From the UHGV virus genome UHGV-0207246: a stretch of DNA of 44,163 nt. The stretch is one strand, 5' to 3'. The notes beneath the pieces were generated by a model. The model saw only the letters and a program-made list of their open reading frames with translations, made no database searches and was not told the DNA's origin. Made by a program: the position numbers and the translations under genes. Each line of letters starts with the position of its first letter. Within the stretch, counting starts at the first letter, position 1. Shown here one piece after another: positions 1 to 44,163 of this stretch. This stretch comes from a virus.

Positions 1-387
1 ATGAATCTTAAAGCAACTGTCGTAGCAGGAGCATGTTTCGTCATCCTGGCTTACGCACACGGCATCTACCAGTACCGCATCGGCTGGAACGAAGGCCGCG
101 CTAATCTCGTTTCGCAGCAACAGCAGAAATCACAGGCCGAGCTGGTAAAGAAAACACAACGGCAGCAGCAGGACGAATCGAAGGCCGCCGCCGCTGACAA
201 CGAAGGCAAGACGAAATCAGAGGTGATTACCCGTGAAGTCGTTAAGTACATTAGAACGCCTGGTCGCAGCGTGTGCACTTTTGACCCTGAGCGCGTGCAG
301 CTCAAGTCCCGCGCCGTCGCAAACGCCAATTCCATCCCCGGATATGACAATGATGCAGCCGCCGTGCAAGCTGGCGCTGCCAAGTAG
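1..387 (+). CDS. i-spanin (Rz-like) candidate: N-terminal transmembrane anchor, Q/K/E-rich coiled-coil periplasmic domain, single Cys
   Basis: ORF track; N-terminal hydrophobic segment VVAGACFVILAYA then charged coiled-coil-like region; overlapped by a lipoprotein ORF in another frame; RBS AAGGAGA at window end 44154-44160 precedes ATG at 1. Confidence 0.55.
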   Translation: MNLKATVVAGACFVILAYAHGIYQYRIGWNEGRANLVSQQQQKSQAELVKKTQRQQQDESKAAAADNEGKTKSEVITREVVKYIRTPGRSVCTFDPERVQLKSRAVANANSIPGYDNDAAAVQAGAAK

Positions 388-502
388 CGACGCCGATGAG
401 GATTTGGCTATCGACGTTCAGAACGCCGAATGTGTACGGCAACTGAGGCTGAAAGTGTTCATGTTGCAGGATTACGTGAGGAACATAACAAATGCCGACT
501 AA
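233..502 (+). CDS. o-spanin (Rz1-like) candidate lipoprotein, overlapping the i-spanin gene in a different frame
   Basis: Signal peptide with lipobox LSAC followed by Pro-rich segment SSSPAPSQTPIPSP and a Cys; begins inside and extends past the 1..387 ORF (overlapped spanin architecture). Confidence 0.5.
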   Translation: MKSLSTLERLVAACALLTLSACSSSPAPSQTPIPSPDMTMMQPPCKLALPSSDADEDLAIDVQNAECVRQLRLKVFMLQDYVRNITNAD

Positions 503-620
503 ACCGTTCAGTTTAGAAGACCTTAAACACCAGAAACTTAAGAACGCTATCAAGGCTATTGCCAACCCGGTTAAGCGGGAATCTTTGTATCGCAACCGTA
601 AGCTGTGGCGGGGTAGTTGA
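492..620 (+). CDS. hypothetical small basic protein (42 aa)
   Basis: ATG at 492 with GAGGAA about 12 nt upstream; 43 codons hand-translated MPTKPFSLEDLKHQKLKNAIKAIANPVKRESLYRNRKLWRGS; below ORF-track threshold. Confidence 0.25.
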   Translation: MPTKPFSLEDLKHQKLKNAIKAIANPVKRESLYRNRKLWRGS

Positions 621-717: not shown

Positions 718-1419
718 ATGAATCGTTTTTTACGTTATCCGTTCCGGGAAGAAGCTGGGGTAGAAGATAAAGCCGGTGGCGGTGGCGCGCCGAAAATGTT
801 CACCGCTGAAGAAGTTCAGGCGCTGATTGAGAAAGAAGTTGCCGGGCTTAAGGCCAATCAGGAAGCATTGCTGGCGGAGAAGAAAGAAGCCGCTCGCAAA
901 GCAAAAGAGGCCGAAGAAGAACGGCAGCGCGCACACCAGGAGGCGTTAAAAGCCGCAGGTAAGATGGACGAGTTCGAAAAGACGATTCGTAGCCAGTATG
1001 ACCCGGTGTTAGCCGAGAAAGACGGTCGCATCTCCAGAATGGCGGAGCGCATCCTCGGCAGCGAACGTAAAGCGGTGTTAGGCTCTTTCGCAGGTGACTT
1101 TATTACCCCGGAAGCAGTGGACATCCTTGCGCCGTTCGTCAAGACTGAGTTCGAAGGTGACGATGTGGTTACTAAGTTTGTTGGTGCAGACGGAAACGTA
1201 ATCACGACTGACCCGGAACAGTTCCGTAAATATCTGCGTGAACACAAAGCGTTTTCGCATTTGATTAAAGCAAATGCAGCTTCCGGCGGCGGGGCTTCCG
1301 GTAGCAAAGGCGGCGGGGCCGCACCAGCGTTTAAAGACATGAGTGAAGCGGAGCGTTTAGCTCTGTATAAATCGAACCCTGCCGAATTTGAACGGCAACT
1401 TAAAGCCCTGAGGAAATAA
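718..1419 (+). CDS. scaffolding protein candidate
   Basis: Immediately upstream of capsid gene; Ala/Glu/Lys-rich predicted coiled coil (EALLAEKKEAARKAKEAEEERQRAHQEALKAAG); start chosen at first ATG (track ORF begins at an in-frame TTG at 664). Confidence 0.5.
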   Translation: MNRFLRYPFREEAGVEDKAGGGGAPKMFTAEEVQALIEKEVAGLKANQEALLAEKKEAARKAKEAEEERQRAHQEALKAAGKMDEFEKTIRSQYDPVLAEKDGRISRMAERILGSERKAVLGSFAGDFITPEAVDILAPFVKTEFEGDDVVTKFVGADGNVITTDPEQFRKYLREHKAFSHLIKANAASGGGASGSKGGGAAPAFKDMSEAERLALYKSNPAEFERQLKALRK

Positions 1420-1421
1420 TA

Positions 1422-2471
1422 ATGGCAATTACCACTATCGGCGATATCGTAACTGGCAACATCCCGGTCCTGGCGTCTTATATGACCGAGGACCCGGTAG
1501 AAAAAACCGCGTTCTTCCAGTCTGGTATTCTGACCCCGACCCCATACGCCGCCGAGATTGCCCGCGGCCCGTCCAACATCGCTAATATTCCTTTCTGGAA
1601 AGCGATTGATACATCTATCGAGCCAAACTACTCGAACGACGTATACCAGGACATCGCTACCCCGCGTAATGTCCAGACCGGTGAGATGATGGCGCGCGTA
1701 GCTTACCTGAACGAAGGTTTTGGCCAGGCTGACCTGACCGTTGAACTGACCAGCCAGAACCCGCTGCAATCTGTGGCTTCTCGCCTGGATAACTTCTGGC
1801 AGCGCCAGGCGCAACGCCGTCTGATTGCTACTGCGCTTGGCCTGTATAATGACAACGTGGCCGCTACCGACGCATACCACGAGCAGAATGACATGGTAAT
1901 CGACGTGTCATCTACTCTGGGCTTCGACGCGGGCGCGTTCATCGACGCTACCCAGACTATGGGTGATGCTCTGATGGGTAACGGCGGTGAAGTGCTGGGC
2001 GCTATCGCGATGCACAGCTTCGTTTATGCGCAGGCCCGTAAGCAGCAGCTTATTGACTTCATCAAAGACGCCGACAACAACACCATGTTCGCCACCTACC
2101 AGGGCTACCGTGTTATTGTTGACGACAGCATGACCGTAGTCGGTACTGGCCCTAGCCGTAAGTTCATCTCCATCATCTTCGGTAACGGCGCTATCGGTTA
2201 CGGTGAAGGTTCTCCGTCCAACCCGCTGGAATACGAGCGCGAAGCGTCCCGCGGCAATGGCGGCGGCGTTGAAACCCTGTGGACCCGTAAGACCTGGTTG
2301 CTGCACCCACTGGGCTACAGCTTCACCAGTGCGGTAATCACCGGTAACGGTACTGAGACTACCCCGCGCTCTGCTTCATGGCAGGACCTGGCGAACGCCT
2401 CCAACTGGAACCGTGTTGTTGAGCGTAAGCATGTGCCGATTGCCTTCCTGGTAACTGGTGTCGGTGCTTAA
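1422..2471 (+). CDS. major capsid protein
   Basis: 349 aa ORF directly after scaffold, strong RBS GAGGAAATAATA, followed by a strong rho-independent terminator; gene order typical of HK97-fold capsid genes. Confidence 0.75.
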   Translation: MAITTIGDIVTGNIPVLASYMTEDPVEKTAFFQSGILTPTPYAAEIARGPSNIANIPFWKAIDTSIEPNYSNDVYQDIATPRNVQTGEMMARVAYLNEGFGQADLTVELTSQNPLQSVASRLDNFWQRQAQRRLIATALGLYNDNVAATDAYHEQNDMVIDVSSTLGFDAGAFIDATQTMGDALMGNGGEVLGAIAMHSFVYAQARKQQLIDFIKDADNNTMFATYQGYRVIVDDSMTVVGTGPSRKFISIIFGNGAIGYGEGSPSNPLEYEREASRGNGGGVETLWTRKTWLLHPLGYSFTSAVITGNGTETTPRSASWQDLANASNWNRVVERKHVPIAFLVTGVGA

Positions 2472-26845: not shown

Positions 26846-27061
26846 ATGCAACCCTCTGAACTAGGCATCCGTGTAGAACAACGCCGCAAAGAACTCGGCA
26901 TCTCCCAGCGCCGTCTGGCTGTCCTGGCTGGCGTTTCACAGGGCGCGATTAACCAGCTGGCACTTGGGGTAACTCAGGACGTCCGCCCGGCAACGCTGTT
27001 TAAACTGGCGGAAGTGCTGGAAGTAGACGCCAAGTGGCTGGCGTTCGGTGAAGGGGCTTAA
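26846..27061 (+). CDS. XRE-family helix-turn-helix transcriptional regulator (Cro/CI-like)
   Basis: HTH ISQRRLAVLAGVSQGAINQLALG; RBS TAAGGAG; isolated plus-strand gene with its own terminator. Confidence 0.7.
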   Translation: MQPSELGIRVEQRRKELGISQRRLAVLAGVSQGAINQLALGVTQDVRPATLFKLAEVLEVDAKWLAFGEGA

Positions 27062-29493: not shown

Positions 29494-29784
29494 TCACCGT
29501 TTAGCCAACTCTTCCAGCAAATTTTTATACTCTTCAAAATATTCCTCGACCAAATCGTCGCCGAAATAGAAGTCGATATACTCGATATTATCTCCTACGT
29601 TAAGCGATGCCGACATGGTGCTTAGTTGGCGTAAGCTAATTAGCTTCATTTCTGTTTCTACGCAGAAAGGCCGGTAGGTATCAAGGTGACAAGAGATATT
29701 GAAACATAAGGCGAACTCTCCCGCCACGGTGTGGACCATATACACTTCGTTTTCTGCTTTATTGTGGAAAATTACACCTTTCAT
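29494..29784 (-). CDS. hypothetical protein
   Basis: ORF track; ATGA-coupled downstream of HTH gene. Confidence 0.4.
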   Translation of the reverse strand: MKGVIFHNKAENEVYMVHTVAGEFALCFNISCHLDTYRPFCVETEMKLISLRQLSTMSASLNVGDNIEYIDFYFGDDLVEEYFEEYKNLLEELAKR

Positions 29785-29963
29785 TTCACGTTCTCCTTAA
29801 TCCACGCTTCAACTTTATTTCGATCAAATGTACCGGGTAAACGGCGACCCATAACCTTAATACAACAATCCGGGAATTTACCACTGCGCAACCAGTTATT
29901 AATTGTCTGACGTGTTACCCCGATACGTTCGGCGACTTCATTCTGTGTCATGTAATGCTGCAT
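29781..29963 (-). CDS. small HTH DNA-binding protein (AlpA/excisionase-like fold)
   Basis: MTQNEVAERIGVTRQTINNWLRSGKFP; first gene of leftward operon. Confidence 0.55.
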   Translation of the reverse strand: MQHYMTQNEVAERIGVTRQTINNWLRSGKFPDCCIKVMGRRLPGTFDRNKVEAWIKENVK

Positions 29964-33647: not shown

Positions 33648-34084
33648 CGACTATCGCGTTTGACGGAAAGACAATGGCATGTGACACGCGTGTTGTGTGC
33701 GGGAGTAACTGTTACAACACAGACACGAAGATATACGAGAACGATTTTGCTGTTATCGGGGTGGCTGGTGATGCGGGGGTAGGGGATATTCTCGTTGGTG
33801 ACCGAGGAATTTTAGTGCCAAAGCGCTATGACTTCGATTTCGAAGCTCTGGTGTTCGTGAAAGACACAGAAAAGGTGTACAAAGTCGCGTTTTATAAATC
33901 GTGGGATTGTGCACTTAGTTCAGTTATTCCGGTTGCCGATAGTTTTTCAGCCGTGGGGTCTGGTTCTCCTTATGCACTGGCAGCTATGGAATGTGGATAC
34001 TCGGCACACGGTGGTGTAGCCGTTGCGTCGAAGTTCGACACTAACACCGGCGGCAAGATTATTACCAAACAACTATTAGGATAA
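33644..34084 (+). CDS. HslV/proteasome beta-subunit-like Ntn hydrolase peptidase
   Basis: N-terminal MTTI (Thr nucleophile after Met removal), IGVAGDAGVGD and SAVGSGSPYALAAME paralleling E. coli HslV motifs. Confidence 0.5.
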   Translation: MTTIAFDGKTMACDTRVVCGSNCYNTDTKIYENDFAVIGVAGDAGVGDILVGDRGILVPKRYDFDFEALVFVKDTEKVYKVAFYKSWDCALSSVIPVADSFSAVGSGSPYALAAMECGYSAHGGVAVASKFDTNTGGKIITKQLLG

Positions 34085-34143
34085 TTCCTAACCGTGGTAT
34101 CCTCCAGTTACTGCATACTTAATACGCACCTGGAGGATTCATC

Positions 34144-34452
34144 TTGGATAAATTTACTGAAACAGTGACAGGCTGGCTTCTGGCTGCCGCACTAGCCGGT
34201 GGGGTAATCGGACTACGACAACATAAGTCCGTTATTTCTGGCCCTATCGACGGCTTCTGCTTTATCGCTACTGGCTTCACTTGTGCCGTATTTGGCGCAC
34301 CTCTCGCAGCTCAATGGTTCGGTATCACTGGCGACCGTGAAATCGCTGGCCTGGGCTTCATTATCGCTATTCTCTGGATGCCTATCTATTCCCGTCTCTC
34401 TGGTATCGTCGCCGGAGAATACATTGCACGTCGAGGAGGCACAGATGAATGA
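34144..34452 (+). CDS. holin candidate (three hydrophobic segments)
   Basis: TTG start after RBS GGAGGA; membrane protein directly upstream of second membrane protein and endolysin. Confidence 0.5.
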   Translation: MDKFTETVTGWLLAAALAGGVIGLRQHKSVISGPIDGFCFIATGFTCAVFGAPLAAQWFGITGDREIAGLGFIIAILWMPIYSRLSGIVAGEYIARRGGTDE

Positions 34453-34717
34453 GCTATTCTGGTTCGGCGGTATGCTGGTAATAGGAGGCACATCGCTGTT
34501 TAATGTATATCACCCCAGCGTGGACGACGGGTTATTCGGTCGGGTGCTCTATATCCTGACTGCCATCGTCTGTGCTGCCGGATGTATACACCTGTTACAG
34601 AGCAGCATGTCACCAACGCTGCCTGAGACGTTAATCACATTAGTTGCGCTGCGTCAGATTCGTCAGGCGTGGCTGTCATACGGAGGACATAAGCGTGTCT
34701 CGAAACATTTCAGATAA
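34445..34717 (+). CDS. second lysis membrane protein (holin/antiholin candidate)
   Basis: Two hydrophobic segments; overlaps holin stop and endolysin start. Confidence 0.45.
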   Translation: MNELFWFGGMLVIGGTSLFNVYHPSVDDGLFGRVLYILTAIVCAAGCIHLLQSSMSPTLPETLITLVALRQIRQAWLSYGGHKRVSKHFR

Positions 34718-35180
34718 TGGATTGCATTTTACCGCCGCGTTCGAGGGATTCCGCGGTACCGCGTATCGCGCTACCCCAAATGAGAAGTACCTGACTATAG
34801 GCTACGGTCACTACGGGCCAGACGTAACACCAGGTAAGACCATCACCCCGGGGCAAGGCCTCCTGTTACTGAACCGTGATATGGCTAAGGCCGTAGCTGC
34901 GGTTGATGCAGCGGCGCACCATTCACTGACACAGGCGCAGTTCGACGCAGTGTGTGACCTGGTGTATAACGCTGGCGCTGGCGTGATTGCGTCTACTACG
35001 GGCACAGGCAAGGCACTGCGTTCTGGTGATACTGCAACACTGCGGGCTAAGCTGGCACTGTTCATCAACCAGAACGGCAAACCACTACTTGGCCTGCGTC
35101 GCCGTACAGCCGGGCGGCTGGCATTGTTCAACGGTAAACCGTGGCAGGAGGCGGAGGCTATTGGGAGGGCTGTTAAATGA
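34695..35180 (+). CDS. endolysin, GH24-type lysozyme
   Basis: Motif TAAFEGFRGTAYRATPNEKYLTIGYGHYG; GTG start after RBS GGAGGA. Confidence 0.7.
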   Translation: MSRNISDNGLHFTAAFEGFRGTAYRATPNEKYLTIGYGHYGPDVTPGKTITPGQGLLLLNRDMAKAVAAVDAAAHHSLTQAQFDAVCDLVYNAGAGVIASTTGTGKALRSGDTATLRAKLALFINQNGKPLLGLRRRTAGRLALFNGKPWQEAEAIGRAVK

Positions 35181-35308: not shown

Positions 35309-35339
35309 AACCCGGACCGCGAATCCGGGTTTTATTTTA
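35309..35339 (+). terminator. rho-independent terminator
   Basis: CCCGGA-CCGCGAA-TCCGGG then TTTTATTTT. Confidence 0.6.
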
Positions 35340-35413
35340 CCAATTGACACCTGAGACTAATCCGACGATACTTAAATCACCTCCTGTTCCATCCATCTGC
35401 TCTCCAGTTTTAT

Positions 35414-35445
35414 CCCGGCCCTGACCCAGCCGGGATTTTTTTTTA
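35414..35445 (+). terminator. rho-independent terminator (second, tandem)
   Basis: CCCGGC-CCTGACCCA-GCCGGG then ATTTTTTTTT. Confidence 0.65.
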
Positions 35446-40766: not shown

Positions 40767-40795
40767 AATAGTACCCTATTATATTGGTGTCTGCA
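40767..40795 (-). promoter_or_regulatory. class I early-type promoter (TTGCAG-17-TACTAT)
   Basis: Reverse complement TTGCAGACACCAATATAATAGGGTACTAT; same region may carry a rightward TCGATA-17-TATATT promoter. Confidence 0.55.
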
Positions 40796-40840
40796 AATAT
40801 TATTTTTATGCGTTACACTGGCGATACTACAGGAGGGCAT

Positions 40841-42778
40841 ATGAGCTTACTTACATCCCTAATCAGCCACCAGATATGGCTGCAACGCACCGCATCCGGC
40901 GAAGTGAAAGACCTCACACCGTTCATTCAGGAGATGCGGGATGAAATCAAACGGCAGGTGCTGTTATTCGGTGACGACGGGCGAAGCACTGCGCGACTGA
41001 ATAAATTGTTACGCGACCTAGAAGAAGCACTGACAGGACTTACGGGTGACTGGCAAACAAAGCTGACAGAAGACCTTAAGGACCTGGCGGCGTATGAGGC
41101 TGAGTGGAATGTAAAGACACTCACGGCCAACGTCAACGCTGAATTTGTTACGCCTACTGCCGAACAGGTGTGGGCCGCTGCCGAGTTTCAGCCTCTGTCG
41201 TTAAGCGACAAGCCAGTAGATTTCACTAAGCTGATGGGTGGCTGGGGTGAAACAGAAGTATCGCGCCTGGTAACTGGCGTTAAGATGGGCTTTGTTCAGG
41301 GTCAAACCACACGGCAGATTGTTAAGAATGTTGTAGGCGCTGGCGGACTGGCCGACATCTCTGAGCGTAACGCCGCTACCGTAATACGTACGGCGCTGGC
41401 TCACGTATCCAACGAAGCCCGTAACGAGACGTACCGCCAGAACGACGACATCATCGAGAAATACGAGTGGGTGTCAACGCTGGACAGCCGTACCAGTACA
41501 ACGTGTTTCACGGCTGAAACAGAATTAGCGCCCATCGCGGGGATGGACGCGGTAATGCGCGGACTCTATTCAGGAAAAATCTTTACCATCGAACTTTCCA
41601 ACGGCGAGAAGTTCAGTGGCACCCCGAAACACCCTGTACTCACGCAATACGGATGGACTCCGCTTGATGAACTCGATCCAACTAAGCATGTCTTGTATAC
41701 CACTGTTGACAAAGTGACTGTGCTCGAAACAGTGAAGAACATAAACATGCCAGCCAGAGCGGATTATATTTTTAATACGCTCGCTGATTTCCCCATCAGG
41801 AAAATGGTAAGCACGAGTCCCGCGGCAACAGATTTCTATGGCGATGGAGTGGGACTCAATGGCAAAATCGACATTGTACGGGCCGATTGCAAACTGCGGA
41901 ACTACGTCCACGCCAGCGGAATTAAACAATTCAAAAGCGAGGGTTTCAGTCTTATTCATAGCGCCGCTTTGCTGTCGGACGATAGCTCTGGCGATTTTCT
42001 CCTCCGGGGTGAATGTCCTGTGAGTGTGCCCGCGCTTAGCGAGGCCAAGTGTTTTGACCATAGAATAGAAAACTGTTTTGCTTACTTGGGTCCTTCTTAT
42101 GCACTCAATAGGCGGGACGCCGGACTCGAACAATTCTATAGCCCTTTTTTGATTCAAAATGGTGTCGTTAGAAACCCAACCACGGGGTCGATCATGCATG
42201 AGTCCGAGCTTCTTGAGAAATGTTGTTACCGTGGTGGTAGTGACGCCGTAATTCTTGGCTATGATGCTGGCGGGAGTGCCATCTCGGTACAAAGAACAAA
42301 TATCATCCGCATAAGCGTCGAGTTTAGAACGTGCCATGTTTATACCCTCTCTAGTAGTCAAGGATATTATACAGCAGGTAGTGCGATAGTCAAGAATTGC
42401 AGGGCCAGAGACGGAATGACGTGGGAAATTGGAAAAGGGCCGATGCCGCCAGCGCATCCGAATTGCAGAAGTACCACGGCCCCGGTGATTAGCTCGGAGT
42501 TCGACTTCCTTGATAAAGGCGCAAAACGCGCGGCACGCGGGGCGGACGGCGGTACTCAGGTAAGCGCGGACACAACCTACTACGAGTTCCTTAAACAACA
42601 GCCCGCATGGTTTCAGGACCAGGCGCTCGGCCCTGTTCGCGGTAAGATTTTCCGTAACAGCGGTATATCACCAGAGGAGTTTCGCGTAATATCTGTAGAT
42701 GGTTTTGGGCGTCCGCTCACGCTTAAGCAGATGGCGGAACTCGATAAACGTGTTGCTGATTATCTGAAAGGGGAATAA
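40841..42778 (+). CDS. head morphogenesis protein (Mu F / SPP1 gp7-like) containing a 298-codon intein
   Basis: RBS AGGAGGG; extein motif LDSRTSTT | C RARDGMTWEIGKGPMPPAHPNCRS is contiguous only after removing residues 241-538 of the track ORF. Confidence 0.6.
   Translation: MSLLTSLISHQIWLQRTASGEVKDLTPFIQEMRDEIKRQVLLFGDDGRSTARLNKLLRDLEEALTGLTGDWQTKLTEDLKDLAAYEAEWNVKTLTANVNAEFVTPTAEQVWAAAEFQPLSLSDKPVDFTKLMGGWGETEVSRLVTGVKMGFVQGQTTRQIVKNVVGAGGLADISERNAATVIRTALAHVSNEARNETYRQNDDIIEKYEWVSTLDSRTSTTCFTAETELAPIAGMDAVMRGLYSGKIFTIELSNGEKFSGTPKHPVLTQYGWTPLDELDPTKHVLYTTVDKVTVLETVKNINMPARADYIFNTLADFPIRKMVSTSPAATDFYGDGVGLNGKIDIVRADCKLRNYVHASGIKQFKSEGFSLIHSAALLSDDSSGDFLLRGECPVSVPALSEAKCFDHRIENCFAYLGPSYALNRRDAGLEQFYSPFLIQNGVVRNPTTGSIMHESELLEKCCYRGGSDAVILGYDAGGSAISVQRTNIIRISVEFRTCHVYTLSSSQGYYTAGSAIVKNCRARDGMTWEIGKGPMPPAHPNCRSTTAPVISSEFDFLDKGAKRAARGADGGTQVSADTTYYEFLKQQPAWFQDQALGPVRGKIFRNSGISPEEFRVISVDGFGRPLTLKQMAELDKRVADYLKGE
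41570..42337 (-). CDS. antisense gene inside the intein: tandem HTH DNA-binding repeats plus DUF559 (Vsr-like PD-(D/E)XK) endonuclease, candidate homing endonuclease
   Basis: IGPYNVDFA...IAIEI...GWHVYVL pattern matches DUF559 (GGYRLDFA...LAVEVDG...GWRVLRF); HTH segments ASIIAKNYGVTTTTVTTFLKKLGL and IECIRRTQVSKTVFYSMVKTLGL; RBS GAGGG 7 nt before ATG. Confidence 0.55.
   Translation of the reverse strand: MARSKLDAYADDICSLYRDGTPASIIAKNYGVTTTTVTTFLKKLGLMHDRPRGWVSNDTILNQKRAIELFESGVPPIECIRRTQVSKTVFYSMVKTLGLAKRGHTHRTFTPEEKIARAIVRQQSGAMNKTETLAFELFNSAGVDVVPQFAIGPYNVDFAIESHSIAIEICCRGTRAYHFPDGEISERIKNIIRSGWHVYVLHCFEHSHFVNSGIQDMLSWIEFIKRSPSVLREYRVFRGATELLAVGKFDGKDFS
42366..42393 (-). promoter_or_regulatory. 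promoter for the antisense endonuclease gene (TTGACT-16-TATAAT), encoded within intein blocks F/G
   Basis: Minus strand TTGACTATCGCACTACCTGCTGTATAAT about 30 nt upstream of the antisense ATG. Confidence 0.5.
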
Positions 42779-43240: not shown

Positions 43241-43272
43241 AAAAGGCCCCGTATGGGGCCCTAGTTTTATTT
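43241..43272. terminator. bidirectional rho-independent terminator
   Basis: AAAAGGCCCC-GTAT-GGGGCC then AGTTTTATTT. Confidence 0.65.
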
Positions 43273-43788
43273 AAATCGCGCAGGCATTAACACCATAAAG
43301 GCCGTGTTTGAAAATAGTATTTTACATCCTCTGGTTTGGTCCTGGAAATCGAAACGAGCAATTTCATTTTTGTATGCCTTAGAAATCTTGTACGCGTCTG
43401 CCAAATAACGCAGGGTGAACCCTATACTATCGACAACACCCGGTGTGATGTGCGCCACGCGTCTCCAGTCAGGAAAGTTTCCTTCTACAACATCTACCGG
43501 AAGTGTACATATAAGCGCACGATTATCGTCATAGAAAGATACACTGCCGTTGTCGTGGTTTACCTCCGCGTAGTTAAATTTAGAAGGCTCTCTCCCTTTG
43601 ATGTCTATGAGAGTCCCTTTCTCAACGTTGGTCTTCACATTGTCGCAGAACAATCTATGACCGTCCGTAGACACTATCAATCCTTCAGGGTCTATGTAAA
43701 AAGCGTTCAAATAGTAGCGAACATCATTTTTAGCCCTGCATATTTTCGCCCCTACATACGCAGGGAAAGTAATTACTGTAGTAACCAT
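43267..43788 (-). CDS. hypothetical protein (173 aa) expressed from class I early-type promoter
   Basis: ORF track; RBS AGGAGATGAAAA. Confidence 0.5.
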   Translation of the reverse strand: MVTTVITFPAYVGAKICRAKNDVRYYLNAFYIDPEGLIVSTDGHRLFCDNVKTNVEKGTLIDIKGREPSKFNYAEVNHDNGSVSFYDDNRALICTLPVDVVEGNFPDWRRVAHITPGVVDSIGFTLRYLADAYKISKAYKNEIARFDFQDQTRGCKILFSNTAFMVLMPARFK

Positions 43789-43815
43789 TTTTCATCTCCT
43801 GTTTAAATTAACTGA

Positions 43816-43844
43816 ATAGTACCCTGTTATGTTGGTGTGCGCAA
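43816..43844 (-). promoter_or_regulatory. class I early-type promoter (TTGCGC-17-TACTAT)
   Basis: Reverse complement TTGCGCACACCAACATAACAGGGTACTAT. Confidence 0.55.
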
Positions 43845-43898
43845 ACTATTTATTTACGTATTCCAGTTATTCCACCGAATTGTAAATGTTAGAATAAA

Positions 43899-43912
43899 CT
43901 ATTCGAATAGTT
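43899..43912. repeat. perfect 14-bp palindrome ACTATTCGAATAGT abutting a -35 element
   Basis: Uses the same CTATT/AATAG pentamer found in the promoter families. Confidence 0.7.
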
Positions 43913-43939
43913 GACTTTTCACTAAAAATATGATAAGCT
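43911..43939 (+). promoter_or_regulatory. rightward promoter (TTGACT-17-TAAGCT with TGn extended -10)
   Basis: TTGACTTTTCACTAAAAATATGATAAGCT. Confidence 0.45.
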
Positions 43940-43945
43940 CCACCT

Positions 43946-44147
43946 GAGCTTGTGAAGTATGAACAAGCGACCGCGGCGCGGGCAGGTAACGGAGCGGGAC
44001 GTAAGTCCTGAGTGTAGTTACGCTGACGCGTTCGGAAGGGCCATACTCTATTGCTTGTGTAAAAAGTAACTGGTTTACTGAGATTACGCCGTTTCTATGT
44101 TTAAATGATAAGGACTAGCGCCCCGCTTTAAGGCGGGGCTTTACTTA
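43946..44147 (+). ncRNA. candidate non-coding transcript or structured leader (about 200 nt)
   Basis: No ORF over 10 codons between promoter 43911-43939 and terminator 44120-44147. Confidence 0.3.
44120..44147 (+). terminator. rho-independent terminator/attenuator upstream of the spanin RBS
   Basis: GCCCCGCT-TTAA-GGCGGGGC then TTTACTT. Confidence 0.55.
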
Positions 44148-44163
44148 TCGAGAAAGGAGAAAC

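Follow-up and report, generated by a model that had tools for sequence, protein, structure and literature searches.

The two-component spanins of phages lambda (Rz/Rz1) and P2 (LysB/LysC) each consist of a type II inner membrane protein and an outer membrane lipoprotein that are encoded by the same DNA, the second in the +1 frame, and in both phages the spanin genes come last in the holin-endolysin cassette. The T4 spanin genes pseT.3 and pseT.2 are linked neither to the holin gene t nor to the endolysin gene e and provide a precedent for non-linkage. T4 is shown as an example of spanin architecture by Kongari et al. 2018 (PMC6139136), who also described a 'Jersey' spanin family of 25 overlapped and three nearly separated members; the overlap in phage Jersey is 155 bp (PMC6139136). 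In published annotations of two Guernseyvirinae phages the spanin genes are separated from the holin and endolysin genes, at ORF7/8 versus ORF66–68 in Golestan (PMC7203180) and at Gp9/10 versus Gp63–65 in SeF1 (PMC9409062).

The stretch of DNA analysed here (UHGV virus genome UHGV-0207246, 44,163 nucleotides, referred to as the window) showed 92–96% nucleotide identity to E. coli phages of the genus Kagunavirus when its first 3 kb, its last 2.2 kb and a query spanning the join of its two ends were searched. The matches included Golestan, K1G/K1H/K1ind, Schulenburg and the BASEL phages Bas70–76, all of which are Guernseyvirinae; Salmonella phages of the genus Jerseyvirus were weaker matches than Kagunavirus. 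We assign the window to a virulent, Kagunavirus-like siphophage of E. coli within the Guernseyvirinae, the genome of which it contains in full. A search for tRNA and tmRNA genes in the window found none. The gene order was as in the relatives, with the replication genes on the minus strand, whereas the plus strand encoded small ORFs, two holins, an endolysin, further small ORFs, terS (37223), terL, portal, minor head and Hoc-like genes, followed by the spanin, scaffold, capsid, connector and tail genes.

Two overlapping genes were found at the start of the window, which an earlier sequence-only reading had described as an overlapped Rz/Rz1-like pair at 1–502:

1–387, plus strand: i-spanin gene (Rz-like, 128 aa), matching phrog_2536 'Rz-like spanin' (3e-54)
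233–502, plus strand: o-spanin gene (Rz1-like, 89 aa), matching phrog_5672 (1e-29) and phrog_1267 (5e-20), both 'Rz-like spanin'

Hydropathy analysis of Rz revealed a single N-terminal hydrophobic segment at approximately amino acids 5–23 (mean Kyte-Doolittle value of 1.7 over 19 amino acids), followed by a Gln-rich (Gln/Lys/Ala) part, predicted to be helical and periplasmic, that contained Cys92. The start codon of Rz1 was a GTG six bases after its ribosome-binding site, GAGGTGAT. Rz1 was in the +1 frame relative to Rz (an offset of 232 nt), overlapped it by 155 bp and extended 115 bp beyond the Rz stop codon. The Rz1 signal, MKSLSTLERLVAACALLTLSA followed by C, had a basic n-region, a hydrophobic core, Ser rather than Asp at +2 and the lipobox LSAC (codons 287–298), and its mature part was 68 amino acids long with eight Pro and two further Cys. 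The lipobox Cys was kept in all related loci, in which the box read LSAC, LASC, LSGC or LNGC, and the C-terminal half of Rz1, past the Rz stop, was nearly invariant among relatives. Spanin prediction therefore gave both the inner membrane anchor on Rz (by hydropathy) and the LSAC lipobox on Rz1, and with the PHROG matches and the 155-bp overlap this upheld the description of the pair; an N-terminal anchor, a lipoprotein signal, a short Pro-rich mature part and overlapping genes were all found.

The pair shared phrog_2536 and phrog_5672/1267, the overlapped layout, the 155-bp overlap and its genome position with the Jersey family. As the match to that family extended even to the length of the overlap, we consider 1–502 to be a routine member of it, that is, a predicted two-component spanin of the published 'Jersey' family. 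It differed in sequence only, with 85–94% amino acid identity to the Kagunavirus alleles and 60–75% to Jerseyvirus-type alleles, and the C-terminus of Rz1 read NITNAD, caused by an insertion, instead of NILE. A divergent spanin allele with a 13-nt overlap was found at the same genomic site in one related locus (L037) and parallels that of FSL SP-031. Outside the family, the overlapped layout resembled that of P2 LysB/LysC, whereas no sequence similarity to lambda Rz was detected beyond the PHROG 'Rz-like' label, a Pfam DUF2514 match being below threshold, and the T4 spanins, of the 'separated' type, come from other families. By analogy with lambda Rz/Rz1, Rz in the inner membrane and Rz1 as an outer membrane lipoprotein would bridge the periplasm and would fuse or disrupt the outer membrane once the holins and the GH24 endolysin have destroyed the murein.

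The lysis cassette was encoded elsewhere in the window:

34144–34452, plus strand: holin gene with a TTG start (phrog_2359)
34445–34717, plus strand: second holin or antiholin gene (phrog_2508)
34695–35180, plus strand: GH24 endolysin gene (Pfam Phage_lysozyme, 4e-27)
approximately 35311–35337 and 35412–35445: two terminator-like hairpins that close the lysis cassette, read from the sequence

The distance from the endolysin stop codon to the Rz ATG, counted across the join, was 8,983 bp with the cassette upstream, in agreement with the approximately 9 kb by which the spanins had been placed downstream of the holin-holin-endolysin cassette (34144–35180). Unlike lambda and P2, the window had its spanins in the head module, and no contiguous canonical holin-endolysin-spanin cassette was present; the packaging, portal, minor head and decoration genes lay between the two loci. 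The hairpins after the endolysin gene were followed by unrelated small ORFs, and no candidate for a lipoprotein or a u-spanin was found in a search near the endolysin gene. Extending the second holin frame N-terminally to a GTG at 34337 brought in a lipobox-like motif, which was rejected, as the GTG had no ribosome-binding site and the relatives start at an ATG.

The order portal, minor head, Hoc-like, an optional antisense gene, leader, Rz/Rz1, scaffold and major capsid protein was found in all 48 loci collected from IMG/VR and in phiEap-2, an unclassified Guernseyvirinae phage; repeating the search with a Jerseyvirus Rz gave essentially the same contigs. The nearest outgroup, PMBT28, the capsid protein of which was 44% identical, had no spanins at this site and only 78 bp between its minor head and scaffold genes, which indicates that the spanin block was either gained at the base of the subfamily or retained since then. 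Separation of the spanins from the cassette is therefore the rule across the Guernseyvirinae and is already present in published annotations. As spanins act only after the holin and endolysin, they have no say in the timing of lysis and do not need linkage to the holin.

The spanin genes were flanked by the following features:

718–1419, plus strand: scaffold gene, directly downstream of the spanins (synteny in all loci; annotation of relatives)
1422–2471, plus strand: major capsid protein gene (synteny; annotation of relatives), followed by a terminator at 2487–2508
492–620, plus strand: rare ORF encoding a basic protein of 42 aa, in an insertion of approximately 130 nt between Rz1 and the scaffold gene
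43267–43788, minus strand: optional antisense gene (173 aa; phrog_3007, 2e-35), between the Hoc-like gene and the leader
43243–43262: bidirectional terminator before the antisense gene

The insertion of approximately 130 nt is what altered the C-terminus of Rz1 from NILE to NITNAD. Searches of 50,697 phage records gave no match to the insertion or the 42-aa ORF at either the DNA or the protein level; one 88%-identical homologue, also of 42 aa, was encoded at the corresponding position of a 43-kb contig. The antisense gene was present in only approximately ten of the 48 loci and was at another site in one locus (L029).

The join between the two ends of the window falls within the translation-initiation region of Rz:

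44154–44160, plus strand: Shine-Dalgarno sequence AAGGAGA of the i-spanin gene, read from the sequence, 4 nt (AAAC) before the ATG at base 1

The window ended in '...GAGAAAGGAGAAAC' and started with 'ATGAATCTT...'. In an alignment of 47 related loci the Shine-Dalgarno sequence was kept as AAAGGAGAAAC or AAAGGGGAAAC, and the arrangement AAGGAGA, AAAC, ATG bears out the earlier proposal that the site at 44154–44160 serves the ATG at base 1. The same reading had proposed that the two ends are contiguous, which was confirmed: they adjoin without a gap in more than 16 related GenBank records, 48 IMG/VR loci and eight metagenome contigs. When 43500–44163 was joined to 1–621, megablast aligned the query as a single piece across the join, with 92–96% identity, in at least 16 phage GenBank records, and in phage XY2 the two ends of the window mapped to the adjacent bases 34000 and 34001. 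Across 47 distinct related upstream regions, the last 60 bases of the window ('...GAGAAAGGAGAAAC', followed by ATG) aligned base for base, so that the join neither lacks nor repeats any sequence. Additionally, the exact 128-aa Rz was encoded internally on eight metagenome contigs, with a Hoc-like gene and the same leader upstream.

It is highly improbable that the window ends are true physical termini, either cos or short direct terminal repeats, located after the ribosome-binding site of Rz but before its start codon. The one observation in its favour was that PhageTerm gave no call of termini for one Kagunavirus (PMC13507304). Such termini are at odds with the seamless joining of the ends in relatives and in the contigs encoding an identical Rz, and a cut at this point would split a conserved Shine-Dalgarno sequence from its ATG, which is implausible. 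No repeat shared by the two window ends was found when looked for. GenBank records of relatives place the join locus at widely differing coordinates and on one strand or the other, so the family has no agreed start, and PhageTerm analysis of the Jerseyvirus SeF1 gave headful/pac packaging (PMC9409062). As the relatives were opened at many positions and a Jerseyvirus was called headful, the opening of the window was arbitrary, as had been suggested.

The terminase genes were less informative. The depositors of the Schulenburg record reported an HHpred match of TerS to P22 gp3; TerS of the window had no match in Pfam or among PDB sequences, and TerL matched only generic Pfam terminase domains (Terminase_6N/6C) and no PDB sequence, so the type of packaging rests on the relatives. 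Judged from these, such genomes are probably packaged by a headful mechanism, and physical circular permutation of the genome is likely. The genome would then have no natural ends, and the deposited copy would have been written from the ATG of the i-spanin gene, leaving its ribosome-binding site at the far end.

Rejoining the ends placed the spanins behind an intergenic region of 375 bp. As the gene upstream of this region is antisense and is preceded by the terminator at 43243–43262, both of which would have to be crossed for the spanins to be co-transcribed with the upstream head genes, transcription of the spanins is expected to start within the intergenic region. Two features were identified there:

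43911–43939, plus strand: sigma-70 type promoter with an extended -10 (TTGACT-N14-TGa-TAAGCT), read from the sequence
43858–43912, strand unspecified: conserved upstream region with TATTCC/GAATA half-sites, from the alignment

A scan of the window found this extended -10 promoter architecture at no other site, its key bases were invariant in 48 loci and, for phage PVP-SE2, a promoter has been predicted at this position. The -10 hexamer TAAGCT was nearly repeated 5 nt downstream as TGAGCT (43945–43950), which has no A at position 2; in a second sequence type of the leader (type B, the window being type A) the hexamer TACGCT occurred twice. A perfect 16-bp palindrome, AACTATTCGAATAGTT, was present at 43897–43912 and overlapped the -35, and an analogous dyad was found in the Jerseyvirus and phiEap-2 versions; the region is probably an operator for a dimeric regulator, which a Cro-like gene (26846–27061) or an HTH gene (approximately 29781–29963) might encode. 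An operator-like site upstream of the holin gene (34071–34086) was dismissed as a chance occurrence, having three mismatches, an expectation of 0.2 per window and no promoter after it. Neither the leader nor a promoter of this type occurred a second time in the window, the region before the lysis cassette included, and no other promoter-like site was found at 1–2700. The spanin genes would thus be the first two cistrons after the promoter, with a constant place in the head-morphogenesis module downstream of the Hoc-like decoration gene and ahead of those for scaffold and capsid, and the spanin, scaffold and capsid genes would form one late transcript that starts near 43946 and passes through the leader. 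All of this, from the promoter to the ends and 'late' timing of the transcript, is predicted from the sequence; a literature search found no study of transcription or RNAs in the Guernseyvirinae.

Approximately 200 nt of leader separated the promoter from the spanins, and contained:

43948–44042, plus strand: structured leader RNA core of 95 nt (covariance model R1, covariation)
44120–44148, plus strand: hairpin rich in G+C (GCCCCGC-UUUAAG-GCGGGGC) with UUUACUUAU after it, similar to an intrinsic terminator and located 15 nt upstream of the Shine-Dalgarno sequence of the spanins

The core comprised a short hairpin (P0), an interrupted hairpin of approximately 23 bp (P1-P2-P3, with a GUAA loop) and an invariant GGAAGG. 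Between the near-repeat of the -10 hexamer and the hairpin at 44120–44148 lay a stretch rich in G+C and then one rich in A+U that contained conserved blocks, and the spanin ribosome-binding site came after the hairpin; the conserved single-stranded blocks downstream of the core hairpins were CUAUUGCUU, AAGAUU and CGCCGU. Of the 181 records that matched the type A leader, 179 were at least 95% identical, some Salmonella phages reaching 100%, and the leader remained 97–98% identical where the Rz and scaffold genes were only 75–84% identical. A second leader sequence type was present in 269 Jerseyvirus records, and phiEap-2 and one contig (L230) each had a further type.

The sequence types differed from one another by compensatory changes. 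Covariance model R1 found exactly one match per genome. In the R1 alignment 96% of cells were paired, versus 29–40% when the pairing partners were slid by one to three columns. Both sides had changed in 14 of the 29 pairs and none of 500 shuffles reached the observed values, in an alignment that was fitted to the model and that represents few independent lineages, perhaps five or six. The four sequence types also folded independently into the same two-hairpin shape, with the GUAA loop in three of them; the folding energies of types B and C were not unusual compared to shuffles. The G-U pairs in P1 showed the sense strand to be the plus strand. The hairpin at 44120–44148 had compensatory changes in its stem and a freely varying loop. 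Its U-tract was imperfect, and weaker in types B and C than in type A, so that it may not terminate transcription; the hairpin could act as a weak terminator, as a site of processing or as an element that affects stability.

A search of Rfam at the gathering threshold and at permissive thresholds returned only noise (e.g. wcaG, E=1.2). When IMG/VR was scanned with a loose DNA pattern to find distant leaders, the output filled with chance matches, only one of the 80 listed and screened loci being real, and a stricter leader pattern, searched against 185,579 bacterial genomes, gave three chance matches and one 738-bp contig resembling phage contamination. The leader is therefore apparently an undescribed, conserved structured RNA without an Rfam family.

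The region upstream of Rz is annotated differently in several GenBank records, among them those of Schulenburg and PVP-SE2, in which a 36-aa ORF (43959–44069 in the window) is a hypothetical protein. There is very little chance that the region codes for this small protein. The frame was cut to 9–17 amino acids or shifted by one-base indels in five related loci (L003, L004, L017, L020 and L026), its ATG was replaced by GTG in L015 and missing from L028, no equivalent existed in types B to D, and the substitutions in the region tracked base pairing rather than codons. With its frame broken by indels and its start lost in two relatives, the ORF was rejected as a real gene, and the leader is treated below as an RNA.

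Four readings of the function of the leader, namely control of read-through, processing by RNase III, a trans-acting sRNA and a protein-binding leader, each have a modest probability. As a tentative reading that we find somewhat less likely than not, the leader (core 43948–44042) would represent a new, Guernseyvirinae-specific class of cis-regulatory RNA that controls read-through, processing or translation of the late transcript. A cis-regulatory role would account for the 97–100% identity of the leader across E. coli and Salmonella phages when the neighbouring genes are 75–84% identical. Such an RNA could be, for example, a protein-independent antiterminator that is put-like but unrelated to put by sequence.

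The put sites of HK022 (putL/putR; PMC9378689) are among the closest described systems. Antiterminators of the put type act in cis on RNA polymerase (beta′ zinc-binding domain). Like the leader, they form a bulged two-stem RNA after a sigma-70 promoter, with an early -10-like element and terminators downstream. It is possible, if doubtful, that the leader is a cis regulator of elongation of this kind, either a put-like antiterminator that renders RNA polymerase resistant to the hairpin and to later terminators or an attenuator whose read-through is set by a factor of the phage or the host, which would gate the spanin, scaffold and capsid genes. The RNA directly followed the promoter with two bulged stems as in putL (PMC9378689), the -10 hexamer was repeated just downstream (TAAGCT/TGAGCT for type A, two copies of TACGCT for type B), the RNA was separated from the first gene by a terminator-like hairpin that showed compensatory changes, and the core was backed by covariation and its leader conserved beyond the flanking genes. 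On the other hand, homology of the leader to put, in sequence or in structure, is not supported: R1 had no match in the HK022 genome at E<=1 and there was no Rfam match. The put RNAs are approximately 70 nt compared to the 95-nt core, and the leader was present in a single copy before late, not early, genes. The type A hexamer repeat lacked the key A at position 2 and the U-tract was weak in types B and C. Inspection for an alternative, anti-terminator pairing between the core and the hairpin revealed nothing conserved, a CGGCG/CGCCG option being broken in L019 and L028.

That no Q-like protein was detected also weighs against control of elongation. No Q-family antiterminator was found among the Pfam and PHROG matches of the ORFs upstream of the lysis cassette and terminase genes, nor in the annotation of Schulenburg; Q-like proteins of an unrecognised kind are possible in the window. 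The layout shared features with the PR'-6S RNA-tR' region of lambda and with StxS (PMC7547250): a constitutive-looking promoter, a transcript of approximately 200 nt that ends in a hairpin, and lysis and head genes after it. As to a -10-like pause element and a terminator approximately 200 nt further on, the hexamer repeat was present in types A and B, but the type A copy (TGAGCT) has no A at position 2, and the hairpin was present with an imperfect U-tract. The window differed from the lambda PR' system in having no recognised Q-like protein and in that, of the lysis genes, the leader precedes the spanins alone and not the holin and endolysin; lambda 6S RNA, unlike the leader, is not known for a covarying structured core.

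The same layout bears on whether the unit from promoter to hairpin is a stable trans-acting sRNA of approximately 200 nt, comparable to lambda 6S RNA or StxS, that acts on targets of the host or the phage, with the spanins merely downstream. The promoter, the approximately 200 nt and the terminator-like hairpin correspond to the layout of PR'-tR' short transcripts, some of which can be regulatory sRNAs (PMC7547250), and the extreme sequence conservation would fit an sRNA. Efficient termination, however, would leave the spanin, scaffold and capsid genes without an evident promoter, there being none other at 1–2700, the U-tract in types B and C was poor and a target was not identified, which together make an sRNA decidedly unlikely.

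The interrupted hairpin of approximately 23 bp could instead be a site for RNase III, or another nuclease, that sets the stability or translation of the late mRNA. RNase III sites occur in the T7 and lambda N leaders. In each of the four sequence types the hairpin spanned approximately two helical turns and had small internal loops, and it is located in a 5′ leader, as such a site would be. RNase III sites, however, usually keep their shape and not their sequence, whereas type A was at least 95% identical in 179 records, and a nuclease site would leave the conserved single-stranded blocks downstream (CUAUUGCUU, AAGAUU and CGCCGU) unexplained; we consider this reading rather unlikely.

We hold with considerable confidence to the account as a whole, in which an arbitrarily opened genome, probably of the headful type, encodes Jersey-family spanins in its head module, within a predicted late unit whose expression would pass through the leader. 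The separation of the spanins and the arbitrary opening are the normal and already annotated state of a well-sampled subfamily; what is new is the conserved structured leader RNA just upstream of the join. Opening a genome within a translation-initiation region means that genes and regulatory elements across the join are easily lost by annotation pipelines, and spanin genes outside the lysis cassette matter for tools that search only beside endolysins. More than 400 sequenced E. coli and Salmonella phages that are therapeutic candidates share this unrecognised leader RNA, which is often mis-annotated as a hypothetical protein. If the leader gates late transcription, it would provide a simple handle on late gene control in the Guernseyvirinae.

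The conserved elements upstream of the spanin genes, and the neighbouring features that varied among relatives, were located on the genome as follows.

43948-44042: structured RNA core, conserved, inside the leader (43946-44148) that precedes the spanin genes
43858-43950: TATTCC/GAATA repeats and a perfect 16-bp palindrome, AACTATTCGAATAGTT, at a conserved extended -10 promoter
43267-43788, minus strand: 173-aa antisense gene, separating the Hoc-like gene from the late leader
40784-42778: minor head (Mu F-like) protein gene, 664 aa
486-660: insertion of ~130 nt in the gap between Rz1 and the scaffold gene, carrying an ORF (492-620)

The RNA core folded into a short hairpin followed by a long interrupted hairpin, a structure supported by covariation, and was more conserved than the genes flanking it. 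It had no match in Rfam. The annotation of some relatives placed a 36-39-aa hypothetical protein over the leader RNA; this ORF was not conserved among relatives and the candidate was rejected. Among bacterial genome assemblies, that of Taishania pollutisoli contained a very small contig (scaffold48, 738 bp) with a Jerseyvirus-type leader, scoring 30 bits with model R1, the covariance model of the core; this most likely represents phage contamination of the assembly.

The repeats and palindrome overlapped the -35 of the promoter, and a second copy of the -10 hexamer lay just downstream (TAAGCT then TGAGCT in the window; TACGCT twice in Jerseyvirus). The repeats, palindrome and duplicated hexamer may serve as an operator together with a sigma-dependent pause element. 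An imperfect copy of the palindrome (34071-34086, three mismatches) was present ~60 nt 5′ of the first holin gene. Its position before the first holin gene is suggestive, but the match carries little statistical weight, with 0.2 expected by chance, and it is not followed by a promoter.

The antisense gene was present in only about one fifth of relatives and was located elsewhere in L029, a related locus used for comparison. Its annotations disagreed, PHROGs giving 'RusA-like resolvase' whereas a weak Pfam match and the depositors gave 'beta-clamp domain'. The gene behaves like a mobile accessory gene. The minor head protein, at 664 aa compared to ~350 aa in most relatives, showed a weak intein-splicing match at amino acids 254-317, and its relatives were either annotated as intein-containing or had an HNH endonuclease close by; it probably contains an intein.

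None of the 50,697 phage records contained the ~130-nt insertion, which changed the final residues of Rz1. The ORF in the insertion encoded a basic product of 42 aa, and an ORF of equal length, 88% identical, occupied the same slot in one 43-kb metagenome contig. A divergent spanin allele was found in the same genomic slot of IMG/VR contig 3300045988_013393 (L037, 4001-4589), with 69% identity in Rz and 41% in Rz1, and there the overlap of the two genes was just 13 nt. This locus is mosaic, its spanin architecture switching between overlapped and nearly separated genes.
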